Shown: in pieces, positions 3,291 to 45,228 of the stretch
How the letters are laid out: the number at the start of each line of letters is the position of its first letter
How positions within the stretch are numbered: the first letter of the stretch is position 1
Origin: a virus
Lineage: Duplodnaviria > Caudoviricetes
Reading direction: 5' to 3' (one strand)
IMG/VR virus record: IMGVR_UViG_3300011443_000015
Span: 2,274-66,273 of that record
Length of the DNA stretch: 64,000 nt
Notes under the pieces: generated by a model
The model's database searches: none
The model's input: only the letters and a program-made list of their open reading frames with translations
Told to the model about the DNA's origin: nothing
Made by a program: the position numbers and the translations under genes

Positions 3291-3522
3291 CACTCCTCCG
3301 TCAACGCCTTGACCGGCGGCGGCATTTAGGCACGAAGTCCGATGACGTAATTGTCAAACGTGTCTTTCAAGTGCTGACGTGCATCGCGCTCGGAGTTGAT
3401 TTCATTTGCGCTGGAGTTAAATGCCCGCGCGTCTGCCTCTGCCAACTTCCATAGGCGATACGCCTCTAACAATGCGTCGAAGTCTCCGACTGTCATTTCA
3501 CTCCTCCGTCAACGCCTTGACC
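3290..3522. repeat. 25-bp direct repeat (3290-3314 and 3498-3522)
   Basis: TCACTCCTCCGTCAACGCCTTGACC present twice; equals the last codons of the helicase (VKALTEE*). Confidence 0.9.
3326..3496 (-). CDS. Hypothetical protein (56 aa) between the direct repeats
   Basis: MTVGDFDALL...GLRA*, more AT-rich codons than its neighbours. Confidence 0.55.
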   Translation of the reverse strand: MTVGDFDALLEAYRLWKLAEADARAFNSSANEINSERDARQHLKDTFDNYVIGLRA

Positions 3523-5192
3523 CACGCCGCCGCCGTCCTGCGGGCAACGTCCTCGCCCGAGCGTCGCGCGACCAAAATATCGTGGTCAATTGTTTTCTGC
3601 CCCTTCGGACCCACAGCGACGACCTCGAAGTACGCGATGGGATGTTTTTGACCCGGGCCATACACACGGTCGAGCGTCTGCGCCGACCGCCCCGGCGAGT
3701 AGCCGCTCGACATCGTGACGCAGGTATGTGCAGCCGTCATGTCGAGCCCGAAGCTGCCAGTCCCCTCGATGCCGCCGACGAACACCGGCCCCTCGGGCGA
3801 CGTCTCGGGCTTCAGCAACGCGAGCGCCGCCAGCCGCTCCTCTTTCTTCTGACCGCCGTGGATGGCGCCCGTCTGGAACTGCGGGAACTTCTGCCGGACG
3901 ACGGTGACCATCCTAAACAGCTCCGCTCGGAAGCGCGTCCAGGCGACGAGGTGCAGGTTCGGGTCGGCCTCGAGGCGCTGCTCGATGAACCAGAGGAGGA
4001 CCTCTAGTTTCTCTCGGCCGACTTCGATCTGGTGGACAACTCCTCGTGAATAGCCACCAGCGTCGCGTGAATCGTCTGGAGCAGCATCTGCATCTGCCCC
4101 ATCCGCATGTCCAAGACCTGGAAACCCTTCTTCACCAGCGTAAAGTCTTCCTCTGTCATTGTTAGCCTCCTCGATGCCAGCGTCTTCTACTCCAGCCAAG
4201 AACCCACCCGTCACCTGCGACAGCCGCAGCGTCTTGATCGCCGCCGTCGCGGCCGTCGCCACCCGCCCGCTCGTGCCCTCTCCGCCCTCGAGCCACACGA
4301 CGAGGTCGTCGCGCATCTGCTTGTACGCCTTCCACGTTGCCGGCGTTAGGGTCGCTGTCAGCGTCACGGGGTCGAGCTTCGGTGGCAGATCGAGGCAGTC
4401 CTTCTGCAGACGCCTGACAGTGACGGGCGCGAACCGACGCTCGAGATCGTCGAGGTTCGTCCAGCCGGTGACCTCCTTGACGACCTTGCCATAACGCACC
4501 ATCGGCTTCCCGCGCTCGAGGATCGGCGACTGGATGGCGTAGCGTGCTTTGAAGAGCGAGACGAACTTGCAGTCGAGCACCGAGGGTGAGAGCAGGTTGC
4601 CCTGGCTGAAGAGATCGAGCGGGCTGTGAAAGATCGGCGTGCCGTTGAGCAGCACGACACGCCCGCACGCCTTGCGGAGCGTCATGCAGGCCTTCGTCTG
4701 CTGCGCCGAGGCGTTCTTGACGAAGCTCGACTCGTCGAGCACCAGCAGCGTCCTCGGGCCGCAGAAGGGGAGCAGCGTCGTGAGGCGCTCGTCGTTGCGC
4801 AGGAACTCGAAGTTTGTCACGATCCAGCGCAGTTGGTTGATGGCGTCCTTGCCGACGGCCGCCTCGTTCTCCCACCACTTCAGGCGGGCGTGATACTCGG
4901 CGACGCGGTTCGGGACGCGCGTCCAGGCGTGCTTAGCAATCTCGCCGAGCTGCGGGTCGTACCAGACGTCGCGGACGGGCGCGGGGGCGACGACGATGAC
5001 GCGCTCGACGTCGCCGCGCTCGAAGAGGAACTGCGCGGCGTCGCAGACGATCTTTGATTTGCCGGTCCTCATCTCGCTCGCGATCAAAGCGAACGGATGC
5101 GCCATCAGCCACGCGACGTCCTCGCGTTGGTGTTGGAAGGGTGGGAGGCGGCACGAGGAGAAGTCGAGGGACTCGTTCACAGTCGTATCCAC
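3498..5192 (-). CDS. SNF2/SF2-family DNA helicase
   Basis: Motif I (MRTGKS), II (LVLDES), III (LNGTP), C-terminal helicase domain; motif VI atypical (QTLDRVYG, last Arg absent); start may be GTG 5180. Confidence 0.9.
   Translation of the reverse strand: MDTTVNESLDFSSCRLPPFQHQREDVAWLMAHPFALIASEMRTGKSKIVCDAAQFLFERGDVERVIVVAPAPVRDVWYDPQLGEIAKHAWTRVPNRVAEYHARLKWWENEAAVGKDAINQLRWIVTNFEFLRNDERLTTLLPFCGPRTLLVLDESSFVKNASAQQTKACMTLRKACGRVVLLNGTPIFHSPLDLFSQGNLLSPSVLDCKFVSLFKARYAIQSPILERGKPMVRYGKVVKEVTGWTNLDDLERRFAPVTVRRLQKDCLDLPPKLDPVTLTATLTPATWKAYKQMRDDLVVWLEGGEGTSGRVATAATAAIKTLRLSQVTGGFLAGVEDAGIEEANNDRGRLYAGEEGFPGLGHADGADADAAPDDSRDAGGYSRGVVHQIEVGREKLEVLLWFIEQRLEADPNLHLVAWTRFRAELFRMVTVVRQKFPQFQTGAIHGGQKKEERLAALALLKPETSPEGPVFVGGIEGTGSFGLDMTAAHTCVTMSSGYSPGRSAQTLDRVYGPGQKHPIAYFEVVAVGPKGQKTIDHDILVARRSGEDVARRTAAAWVKALTEE
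4004..4159 (-). CDS. Nested out-of-frame gene inside the helicase (51 aa)
   Basis: GGAGG-N6-ATG; MTEEDFTLVKKGFQVLDMRMGQMQMLLQTIHATLVAIHEELSTRSKSAERN*; coincides with an insertion in the helicase linker. Confidence 0.55.
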   Translation of the reverse strand: MTEEDFTLVKKGFQVLDMRMGQMQMLLQTIHATLVAIHEELSTRSKSAERN

Positions 5193-5966: not shown

Positions 5967-6818
5967 TCATGAGATCCTCTTGTCTGCTGCCTTAATCTCT
6001 TCTGGTGTCGCTGTCGGATAGATCCCCAGCTTCGCATTCTGCGCCAGTTTCCGCACGTCCTCCGGAAACGACGCCGAGAGAATCCAGTCGTAGTAACTCT
6101 TCGGCACCCGGTCCATCGGCACGTCGCGATGCTTTTTCAACATGCAGGTCGGCACGCCGTTCACCATCTTGAACGACCCGTCGGACGCCAACCACCCCGG
6201 CCACTGCAACTCGTGGAGCGCCTGGAGATCACGTGGGAGCACCTCGAAGCGCTGGAGCTGCCCGACGATCACCTCGGTCGACGCCCGCGCGTCGGTCAGG
6301 GCGCCGTGGGCCCCCTCAAGTTTTTCACCTTTGTATTTCTCGTAGAGATCCGACAACGTCCTCGGATGCGTGATCTGCTCCAGCCGTTCGCCGTCGAGAA
6401 TCTTCGCCTGACCATACTCCCACGGCACGCGCGCGAGGCCGAACTCGTAGGTCAACCGCACGAGGTCGAACCGGACATTCTTGCCGCCGAAGTCGCAGTG
6501 CGAGAAGCCGTGCGCCAGGTTGGTGGCGATCTGGTCGAAGCGCGGCGTGATGTGGAAGCGCTCGCACTGGCACTCGAGGCGCGGGCGCAGGCACGTCTGG
6601 CACGCCTCGATCATCTCGTCGGTGATGTTGTGGACCGCCGTCGACGCCGCAGGAATCGGGACGCCCGGATTGATCAGCGACCGATACTCCTTGATCAAGC
6701 CGGTCGCGTCCCAGACCTGGAAGCCGAGCTCGATGATGCGGGCCTCGGGGTGAACGCCCGTGGTTTCGGTATCGACGATGATCAAGGGGCGCGTGAGTGA
6801 GAGCAGTGTGTGGATCAT
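5967..6818 (-). CDS. DEDDh 3'-5' exonuclease (DnaQ/epsilon-like)
   Basis: IIVDTETTG, NVRFD, AHGALTDA motifs. Confidence 0.9.
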   Translation of the reverse strand: MIHTLLSLTRPLIIVDTETTGVHPEARIIELGFQVWDATGLIKEYRSLINPGVPIPAASTAVHNITDEMIEACQTCLRPRLECQCERFHITPRFDQIATNLAHGFSHCDFGGKNVRFDLVRLTYEFGLARVPWEYGQAKILDGERLEQITHPRTLSDLYEKYKGEKLEGAHGALTDARASTEVIVGQLQRFEVLPRDLQALHELQWPGWLASDGSFKMVNGVPTCMLKKHRDVPMDRVPKSYYDWILSASFPEDVRKLAQNAKLGIYPTATPEEIKAADKRIS

Positions 6819-8663: not shown

Positions 8664-9731
8664 TCACGACCTCATCGACATAATTACGTTGAGAAAACTT
8701 GATCCGTCCGTCACCAGCAACGGCGACCTTGCGTCCTTTAAATCTAGCACAACCTGCTGCCCCTCCGCTACCTCTAAAAAGTCCAGCAGATACTGCCCAC
8801 TCAAGGTCACGCGCATCGGCTCGCCGGCATAGTCCGCCGCGACCGTCTCCTGTGCGTCCCCGACCTCCTGGCTGCTCGAGGAGACCGAGAGCATGTCGGC
8901 ATCAAGGTCGAACACCATCGACTGATTCTCAGGCGCCACCATCGCCACGCGACGCACCGCCGAGGCGAGGGCTGCACGGCCGACCGTGGCCCGACGATCG
9001 TTGTTGCGCGGGATGATGCTCTGATAGGCGGGAAACTTGCCGGCGAGCATCCGCGAGAACAGCATTCGATGACCGACGCTGAAGAAGAGATGTCGCTCGT
9101 CCTGCGAAAAGACCATCTCGCCGCCCGCGAAGAGGCCCATCAGCATGTCCAGGGCCTTGGTCGGCAGCAGCACCGAGGTGGCCGCGCCCGCCTGCGACAT
9201 GGTCGCGAGGGAGAGCCGCTTGCCGTCCGTGGCAACAAGGCCGCACACGTTGTCGGCGACGCTAAGCAGCGCGCCCTTGATGACGAAGTTCGAACCCTTG
9301 TCGGTGATGGCGTAGCGGACGCGCTTGATCATCTGTTGCAGGGCGGCGGTTGAGAAGGATGTCGGCTCCCCTGCGACCTCGGGGGCCTGGGGGAAGTCGT
9401 CAGGTGGAAGCGTCTGCAACCGCGAGCGGAACTGGCCGGAGAGGATGTGCACGTGCTTCGCGTCGGTGACAATCTGCACGTCCGTATCCGGCAGTTGCTC
9501 GACGAGGTCCAACAGACGCTTCGCGGGCAGCGTGATCACGCCGGGCTCGTCGATCTGTGCCTGACAGCCGGTGCTGAAGCCGACCTCGAGGTCGGAGGCA
9601 AAGAGGTGCAGGTGGTCGTCTGCACGCAGCAGGACGTTCATCAGGATCGGCAGCGGCGGCTTGACGGCGGCGACCTGGTTGATGAGACGAAGTTCTTGGA
9701 CGAGGGTCGTGCTGTTGACGGTGATGTTCAT
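8664..9731 (-). CDS. dnaN: DNA polymerase III beta sliding clamp homolog
   Basis: 355 aa; PILMNVLL, ASDLEV, ATDGKRL, GKFPAYQSIIP motifs. Confidence 0.92.
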   Translation of the reverse strand: MNITVNSTTLVQELRLINQVAAVKPPLPILMNVLLRADDHLHLFASDLEVGFSTGCQAQIDEPGVITLPAKRLLDLVEQLPDTDVQIVTDAKHVHILSGQFRSRLQTLPPDDFPQAPEVAGEPTSFSTAALQQMIKRVRYAITDKGSNFVIKGALLSVADNVCGLVATDGKRLSLATMSQAGAATSVLLPTKALDMLMGLFAGGEMVFSQDERHLFFSVGHRMLFSRMLAGKFPAYQSIIPRNNDRRATVGRAALASAVRRVAMVAPENQSMVFDLDADMLSVSSSSQEVGDAQETVAADYAGEPMRVTLSGQYLLDFLEVAEGQQVVLDLKDARSPLLVTDGSSFLNVIMSMRS

Positions 9732-44066: not shown

Positions 44067-44845
44067 TGGCGACACTTGTAGCAACGGCGGGCGCCACGAA
44101 CGCGAACAGCTACCCGACGCTGGCCGAGGCGCTCGACTACTTCGAGCGGCGGACGACGGTAGACGGGTGGGAGAACGGCGATCAGGAAGTGCTCTTGATG
44201 ATGGCGACGCGCGTGCTCGACGCGATGGCGCGCCCGCACAAGACCTTCGTCCCCGAGCAGGGCGGCGTCCCCGCGCACTGGATCACGAGCCCGACATGGA
44301 CCGGCGCGCCGGCCTCGACGACACAGAAGCTCGCGTGGCCCCGGTCGGGAATGTATGACGCGAATGGCAATTCGCTCGACTGGGGGATCACGGGCATCTC
44401 GCAGGCGGTGGCGCCCGTCATCACGACAGACCGGGCACACGGGCTGACGACGTCCGACGAGGTCTTCATCTACGGGTCGGATAGCGACCCGCTCGTCGAT
44501 GGCGCCTACGCGGTCACTGTCCTCTCGGCGACGACGTTTTCCATCCTGGCCACGGTCACGACGGCGGGCACAACCGGCACGATGACGGTGGTCCCGGCGG
44601 ACCTGAAGGACGCGACGGCGGAGCTCGCCGGCGCGCTCGGCACGACGGACACGACGCTCGACAGCGACATCATCATCCAGGGCATCACGTCGCTCAAGGC
44701 GGGCAGCGTGTCGATGTCCTTCAAGGACATGATCGAGAAGCACGTGCTCCCAGACATGATCTGGAACATGATGCCCTCGTCGTGGTTCACCGACGAGGTC
44801 TACAGTTACGTCAACTCTGCGCTCTTTGATGTGGTGTCCGAATGA
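44066..44845 (+). CDS. Head-tail adaptor (DnaT-like) with inserted beta-barrel
   Basis: ANSY.TLAEA..YF, QKLAWPR; insert ITGISQA..VITT..AHGL. Confidence 0.7.
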   Translation: MATLVATAGATNANSYPTLAEALDYFERRTTVDGWENGDQEVLLMMATRVLDAMARPHKTFVPEQGGVPAHWITSPTWTGAPASTTQKLAWPRSGMYDANGNSLDWGITGISQAVAPVITTDRAHGLTTSDEVFIYGSDSDPLVDGAYAVTVLSATTFSILATVTTAGTTGTMTVVPADLKDATAELAGALGTTDTTLDSDIIIQGITSLKAGSVSMSFKDMIEKHVLPDMIWNMMPSSWFTDEVYSYVNSALFDVVSE

Positions 44846-45228
44846 GCCTGCTCGACACGCTCCGCAAAGGCGTGCTGACGATCGACAAGGCGACGAAGTC
44901 GCTCCAGACGTCGGTCAGCTACGTGAAGAACTCCGCGCATGACGAGTATGGGGCGCCGGCGACCGTCGCGGCGGCCACGACCCTGAAGGCGATTGTCGAC
45001 TACCGGCACGTGCCCGTCCGGAGCAAGGAAGGGATCACGGTGATGGCGTCTGCCACGCTGACGCTGCTCAACGTCCAGGAAGTCTACGACGCGACGGGCG
45101 GACTCGGCGTCGACACAGACGACGAGTTCACGCTGCCCGACGGGAGCAAGAGCAAGGTGATCAGCGTCGGCGGCTTCATGGACGCGGGCACGTATGGCCC
45201 GATTCCGCTCACGATCTATCTAGGCTGA
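44842..45228 (+). CDS. Head closure/stopper protein
   Basis: HDEYG..., DDEFTLPDG; synteny. Confidence 0.6.
   Translation: MSLLDTLRKGVLTIDKATKSLQTSVSYVKNSAHDEYGAPATVAAATTLKAIVDYRHVPVRSKEGITVMASATLTLLNVQEVYDATGGLGVDTDDEFTLPDGSKSKVISVGGFMDAGTYGPIPLTIYLG

Follow-up and report, generated by a model that had tools for sequence, protein, structure and literature searches.

A 51-codon gene (product P0002) lies wholly within the longer gene of an SNF2-family helicase (P0001) in the phage genome studied here, on the same strand and in another reading frame, at the low-complexity stretch that joins the two RecA-like lobes of the helicase. We put at roughly 0.85 the probability that this hitherto unannotated embedded gene is real, and give the same figure to our best explanation, a pre-existing small phage gene that now sits in the +1 frame of a permissive linker, complete with a ribosome-binding site of its own, and is probably translated separately. 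The window (the whole stretch of DNA analysed, 64 000 nt) covers most of a 66-kb IMG/VR viral record from an uncultured phage that is present in groundwater and freshwater-sediment samples. In it the helicase gene runs from 3498 to 5192 on the minus strand and translates as a single uninterrupted frame of 564 aa, and the small gene, supported by profile matches, GC composition and AF2 modelling, occupies 4004–4159 (−).

The start signals were found exactly where the original prediction had placed them: a Shine-Dalgarno (SD)-like GGAGG at 4166–4170 (−) is followed after a 6-nt spacer by an ATG at 4157–4159, and the frame closes with a TAG at 4004–4006. The distance between the two starts (5192 − 4159 = 1033, or 1 modulo 3) puts the small ORF in the +1 frame relative to the helicase. 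Alternative-frame ORFs of this size are common in the window, which belongs to a 62% G+C genome, and even the helicase gene holds one of 238 codons. Since a 51-codon alternative-frame ORF is by itself unremarkable at 62% G+C, the case rests on comparative and compositional evidence. The 238-codon ORF (4162–4878, −) starts with GTG, overlaps the helicase N-lobe out of frame and is typical of GC-rich coding DNA; GC3 over that region keeps to the helicase frame, so this ORF is most likely no gene.

A homologous ATG-started ORF, in the same +1 frame and at the same place, is present in nine helicases including that of the window; the other carriers are loci L006, L002, L090, L091, L092, L093, L098 and L099, of which L006 (ORF at 3977–4105) and L002 (ORF at 4058–4183) are the closest relatives. 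All nine copies have an SD-like purine run 5–9 nt before the ATG. None of the nine carriers, which are independent assemblies, has its helicase frame interrupted, and the insertion has thus left the helicase unbroken, as had been proposed; nor does the nested frame contain stops in any of the nine, an outcome named beforehand as one that would speak against a gene. Nested copies are mutually ~30–50% identical, and a P0002 profile matches the +1-frame and free-standing ORFs of relatives with 78–99 bits. These matches are hard to reconcile with a fortuitous ORF in an alternative frame of GC-rich coding sequence, to which the abundance of long alternative-frame ORFs in the window would otherwise lend some credit. 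An assembly or frameshift artefact fares no better: three other studies yielded contigs with the identical sequence here, which rules out misassembly, and contigs of four DNA runs are identical over the nested gene with zero variants. We consider a chance ORF or artefact to be vanishingly improbable.

The conserved N-terminus of the small protein leaves a trace in the helicase frame, an R-x-R-D-D-x-E-G-like shadow motif. Nested genes in L090, L091 and L092 were predicted from this motif before the DNA was inspected, and all three loci carry the ORF; L098 and L099 gave merely weak matches to the shadow profile, yet also carry it. L093 was found through a 42-aa protein that had been called separately by NCBI. 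Helicases with other linkers showed no such +1-frame ORF, and no in-frame version of the small protein was present in the ~120 helicases searched. Embedded genes of this kind go unannotated because gene callers forbid fully embedded same-strand ORFs. At L093 (1–1100 of a 1.8-kb NCBI MAG contig) the helicase N-lobe as called is not in frame with the linker and C-lobe; a frameshift or indel lies upstream, while the linker itself reads through, and it is this upstream frameshift or indel that led to the small ORF being annotated separately, as a gene of 42 aa.

The host gene is recognizable as an SNF2-family helicase by its N-terminal ATPase domain and C-terminal RecA-like lobe. SNF2-rel_dom (PF00176) matches residues 21–305 with an E-value of 3.4e-10 and 39.9 bits against a Pfam cut-off of 24.9, and Helicase_C at residues 411–510 falls below its Pfam cut-off (15.5 versus 23.5 bits). 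The AF2 model of P0001, computed from an alignment of 97 homologues (A1), has a mean pLDDT of 83 and a pTM of 0.77, with confident alternating strands and helices flanking the linker on either side. The gene belongs to a replication module that includes a beta clamp (8664–9731) and a DEDDh exonuclease (5967–6818). Database homologues of the helicase number 949 at E ≤ 0.001; megablast against GenBank phages returned no match, and tblastn only relatives below 30% identity.

Both lobes are highly conserved in A1; between them, two near-invariant anchors enclose a linker of 34 to 135 aa that cannot be aligned family-wide. At 77 aa between anchors, the linker of the window is of ordinary length. 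The low-complexity insertion described in the original prediction does fall in this hypervariable inter-lobe stretch of the 97 homologues. Its helicase-frame read-through (residues 341–385; 4038–4172, −; delimited by AF2, A1 and GC3) is G/D/A/R/S-rich and is the sole internal segment of P0001 with pLDDT below 50, modelled without secondary structure; the same nucleotides hold the SD and about 40 codons from the start of the small ORF. G+C content is 0.53–0.57 in the insert versus 0.62–0.72 in its flanks. A true dual-coding overlap follows at 4004–4037 (−), where the tail and stop of the small gene, its last ~10 codons, run over the conserved start of the C-lobe (residues 386–396). This overlap includes the near-invariant helicase columns G392, R393, K395 and L396 of A1 as well as a strand (387–390) and a helix (from 394) in the AF2 model. 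The C-terminal tails of the small proteins are non-conserved, varying in both length and sequence.

We compared the three frames over a 35-codon ungapped core of seven nested copies. Mean amino acid identity is 0.40 in the small-ORF frame, 0.28 in the helicase frame and 0.29 in the third frame, and the corresponding BLOSUM62 scores per column are 1.99, 0.76 and 0.13; stops per copy number zero in the first two frames and 1–7 in the third. Composition follows the same division. GC3 in the helicase frame is 0.73–1.00 in every 90-nt window from the gene start to the insert, falls to 0.20–0.37 over 4157–4023, where the +1 frame reaches 0.83–0.87, and is high again past the insert, dipping only at the gene's 3′ end. 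In GC content by codon position (0.50/0.31/0.82) the small ORF is like real genes of this phage, and its GC3 of 0.82 compares with 0.83 for the helicase overall. Both frames are thus kept open in relatives, and the sequence comparisons indicate protein-level constraint on the embedded one.

The helicase frame has left a mark of a different kind. A codon ending in T before an AA, AG or GA codon produces a stop in the helicase frame, and such codons are absent from all 141 sites of this type in the nine nested copies, against 40 of 286 (14%) at other sites of the nested ORFs (Fisher p = 5e-8) and 6 of 61 (10%) at the equivalent sites of free-standing copies. Conservation of the linker in the helicase frame had been named in advance as evidence against a nested gene, and a subset of homologues does share the motif described above; that part stood, but the motif proved to be a frame shadow of the small protein. 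In free-standing copies the same shadow motif stands, together with stop codons, in the −1 frame, which is untranslated there, and the apparent conservation of the helicase frame is therefore a by-product.

A further possibility is that the small gene was inserted but is now silent, so that the helicase frame alone matters. Nucleotide differences by codon position are indeed less gene-like in nested copies (0.49/0.35/0.50) than in free-standing ones (0.55/0.20/0.68), a flattening of positional divergence that such a fossil would show. However, ATG, SD and open frame are kept in all nine copies despite identities of ~30–50%, the hydrophobic heptad positions of the product are conserved, the GC3 of the small ORF matches the coding bias of the genome, and a decaying frame would gather stops like the third frame. 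We regard a silent relic as very improbable.

Free-standing homologues were sought, as had been suggested, and occur in no fewer than five further phage contexts, each time as an ordinary small gene. A scan of IMG/VR for a degenerate pattern of the aligned peptides recovered L007, L008 and L009, where a 46-aa homologue is intergenic, between a 185-aa ORF and a 78-aa ORF, near a glycosyltransferase-rich region. L094 lies downstream of a UvrD-like helicase and an 84-aa gene, L095 and L096 just upstream of a Glycos_transf_2 gene, and L097, P0131 and P0134 among small genes. The helicase locus that shares the 65.9-kb record of L007 (L003/L011) has a linker of 50 aa and no ORF in it. In all, about 17 family members were found. 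Among 1.84 billion cluster representatives the profile picked out nine hits of 35–67 aa, to which the contexts of L094–L097, P0131 and P0134 belong; a word-index protein search with P0002 returned no match beyond P0002 itself, metagenome-contig scans with family alignments A3 and A6 produced no confirmed match, and locus searches with sub-alignments A6 and A7 added none to the known loci. The window contains one copy by profile search. A weak tblastn match of P0002 at 44815–44946 was rejected, as it lies in the antisense frame of real genes.

Among five whole records searched, three have exactly one copy (nested in G000 and G001, and free-standing in G002, whose 50-aa helicase linker is empty) and two CheckV-complete records have none. 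With one copy per carrier record, nested or free, and none in the two complete records, the small gene is accessory and has alternative genome locations. Run SRR14194027 holds both a free-standing copy (L096, beside the glycosyltransferase gene) and a nested one (L099, in a helicase), which could represent two phages or one phage with two paralogues. Two different free-standing copies directly adjoin glycosyltransferase-like genes (L007:2433–2990 and L095:384–917), and such genes are abundant in the phage of the window according to the notes accompanying the original prediction; this neighbourhood may be fortuitous or may hint at function.

The copies are alike in DNA from the SD and ATG onward but not upstream, and the linker module that precedes the unit varies from one helicase to the next. 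A helicase tree that left out the linker columns included six carriers (two more were recognized later); on it the nested trait requires five changes for these six, and several of them pair, with strong support, with sister helicases that lack the gene and have unrelated linkers. From the onset of similarity at the SD/ATG, the varied upstream modules and the patchy tree distribution we infer that an existing gene was inserted and that the linker was subsequently exchanged; the patchiness could also reflect repeated loss.

The opposite direction, in which the ORF was born in the helicase linker by de novo overprinting and copies were later exported to free-standing sites, draws on the finding that all copies come from one related phage group having this helicase, on the few codons that separate the ends of six of the seven first-checked nested ORFs from the C-lobe start (maybe one old event), and on overprinting being the usual origin proposed for viral overlapping genes (PMC8227390, PMC3494269). 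Yet the helicase-frame GC3 of 0.20–0.37 shows no trace of past selection on that reading, the conserved unit has its own SD and begins abruptly after unrelated upstream linker modules, free-standing copies stand in at least four or five different neighbourhoods, and the ORF is absent from most helicase linkers. Birth in the linker consequently appears improbable to us, though less so than a silent relic. A patchy, in-frame enzyme-gene insertion also recalls inteins and self-splicing introns, and the insert might be removed from the helicase mRNA or protein as a group I/II intron or an intein. The insert is, however, only ~170 nt, no Rfam match at E ≤ 1 was found within 3700–4500, neither frame contains intein or nuclease domains, and the free-standing copies are plain small genes. 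With neither the splicing domains nor the catalytic RNA structure that define such elements, a self-splicing element can be given next to no credence.

The linker itself behaves as a cassette mosaic. In-frame modules recur elsewhere in the A1 linker columns (~337–391 of P0001; L015, L026, L093, L092): a ~25-aa acidic/leucine module common to many helicase homologues, a short P-G-V-T-H-D-I-D-G-like module and a CxxC...CxxC zinc-ribbon-like insert, and some helicase linkers combine a module with the nested gene. Contigs of freshwater-metagenome relatives (run X6) match the helicase on the C-lobe side as far as ~4021 and, on the N-lobe side, from ~4237 onwards; past these points, which may be the natural boundaries of an exchangeable linker cassette, they turn unlike the window. 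At L090 a second +1-frame linker ORF of 27 codons (1838–1921, +) directly follows the coiled-coil gene; it has AGGAGG-N5-ATG upstream, a strongly hydrophobic, membrane-helix-like product and a stop that overlaps the conserved C-lobe start. These two tandem embedded ORFs, both preceded by a strong SD, suggest that the linker can collect small genes.

The amphipathic, coiled-coil character proposed for the product is borne out by modelling. AF2 predicts P0002 (14 family members) as a single helix over residues 3–50 with a pLDDT of 95, and positions 6, 9, 13, 16, 20, 23, 27, 30 and 34 are at least 86% L/I/V/M/F in the 14 members, a 3-4 heptad pattern; Gly12-Phe13 is invariant in the family. A continuous helix with conserved a/d heptad hydrophobics corresponds to a predicted coiled coil, although a predicted helix says little about oligomeric state in so short a peptide. 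PDB sequence matches were only marginal and to GCN4 or designed coiled coils, the ESM Atlas returned unnamed viral clusters only (scores ≤0.90), and no consistent Pfam or PHROG family emerged for P0002 and its homologues beyond scattered single-member hits (best E 0.007). Our best guess is that the peptide forms a coiled-coil oligomer or modulates a host or phage protein by helix docking. The earlier suggestion that it might regulate the helicase loses ground as an obligatory link, which is disfavoured by the unrelated genes adjoining the free-standing copies.

We postulate that ~170 nt of the helicase gene are probably read twice. To ribosomes translating the helicase the insert would be a disordered spacer of ~45 aa between the RecA-like lobes, whereas initiation at the internal GGAGG-N6-ATG would yield a 51-aa peptide of its own. 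Selection acts mainly on the small-gene frame; the helicase frame has merely to stay open, and does so through avoidance of T-ending codons before AA, AG or GA codons. The peptide, with its heptad (a/d) stripe, would most likely form a coiled-coil oligomer or dock on a helical partner, as an accessory protein that needs no tie to the helicase. Insertion of the existing gene into the permissive linker could have been followed by cassette-like exchange or loss via the conserved flanks. We also entertain, tentatively and as something rather unlikely, the broader idea that the linker is a regular landing pad for out-of-frame accessory genes that carry their own ribosome-binding sites, are protected from deletion by the helicase frame and are swapped as cassettes between phages. 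If so, deletion protection would stem from the need for an in-frame helicase and swaps from recombination in the conserved flanks, and the overlap would have arisen by gene insertion with the host linker as the new reading, the reverse of classical overprinting.

Several implications follow. An overlap may arise through insertion of an existing gene in a disordered linker and not just by de novo overprinting, and low-complexity, hypervariable linkers of phage enzymes may hide independent genes, whose frame shadows can pass for conserved linker motifs. Comparative evidence can be strong enough to establish an embedded gene without experiments, its translation being deduced, and the nested and free-standing copies provide natural controls for the effect of dual coding on synonymous sites.

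Length variation between RecA-like lobes is also a feature of the major insertion region of Snf2-family ATPases, to which we liken the phage helicase linker by description. This region, as set out by Flaus et al. in 2006, reportedly varies in length between the lobes and takes large insertions, and the known insertions are said to be in-frame protein modules, not separately translated out-of-frame genes. The nearest described parallel is the out-of-frame HNH insertion in the DNA methylase of mycobacteriophage ShiLan (Arsenault, Gosselin and Gogarten 2025, PMC11855218). In both cases a hidden same-strand ORF in another frame covers almost all of the insertion, the in-frame reading is predicted to loop off the host fold, and the insertion is patchy among related phages (PMC11855218). 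The hidden ORF of ShiLan, however, is an HNH homing endonuclease, from which the mobility of that insertion follows, whereas P0002 and its homologues are 40–60-aa coiled-coil-like peptides with no nuclease motif; the ShiLan ORF has a GTG start and no detectable ribosome-binding site, in contrast to the clear SD and ATG of P0002 (PMC11855218). P0002 differs further in having free-standing homologues and a host site that is a naturally hypervariable inter-lobe linker. Tested against ShiLan, our insert therefore agrees in form and patchiness but is no homing endonuclease.

The Rz/Rz1 spanin genes of lambda and its relatives, which occur in embedded, overlapped or separated arrangements according to Kongari et al. 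2018 (PMC6139136), offer a parallel in architecture. One gene may lie wholly within the +1 frame of the other on the same strand, as P0002 does in the helicase, and the alternative arrangements resemble the nested and free-standing states of the P0002 family. Rz1 is an outer-membrane lipoprotein that works with the product of its host gene; unlike Rz1, the small gene implies no functional pairing with the helicase, because its free-standing copies adjoin unrelated genes. Overprinted viral genes, finally, encode two proteins from the same nucleotides in different frames, with one partner disordered or low-complexity and weakly constrained (PMC8227390, PMC3494269). In the classical situation the embedded ORF is novel and lineage-restricted, whereas P0002 has homologues that are ordinary genes. 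Given these homologues outside the overlap (L007–L009, L094–L097, P0131 and P0134), P0002 does not qualify as a de novo overprinted gene, and the newer of the two readings is more likely the helicase linker segment than the embedded ORF.
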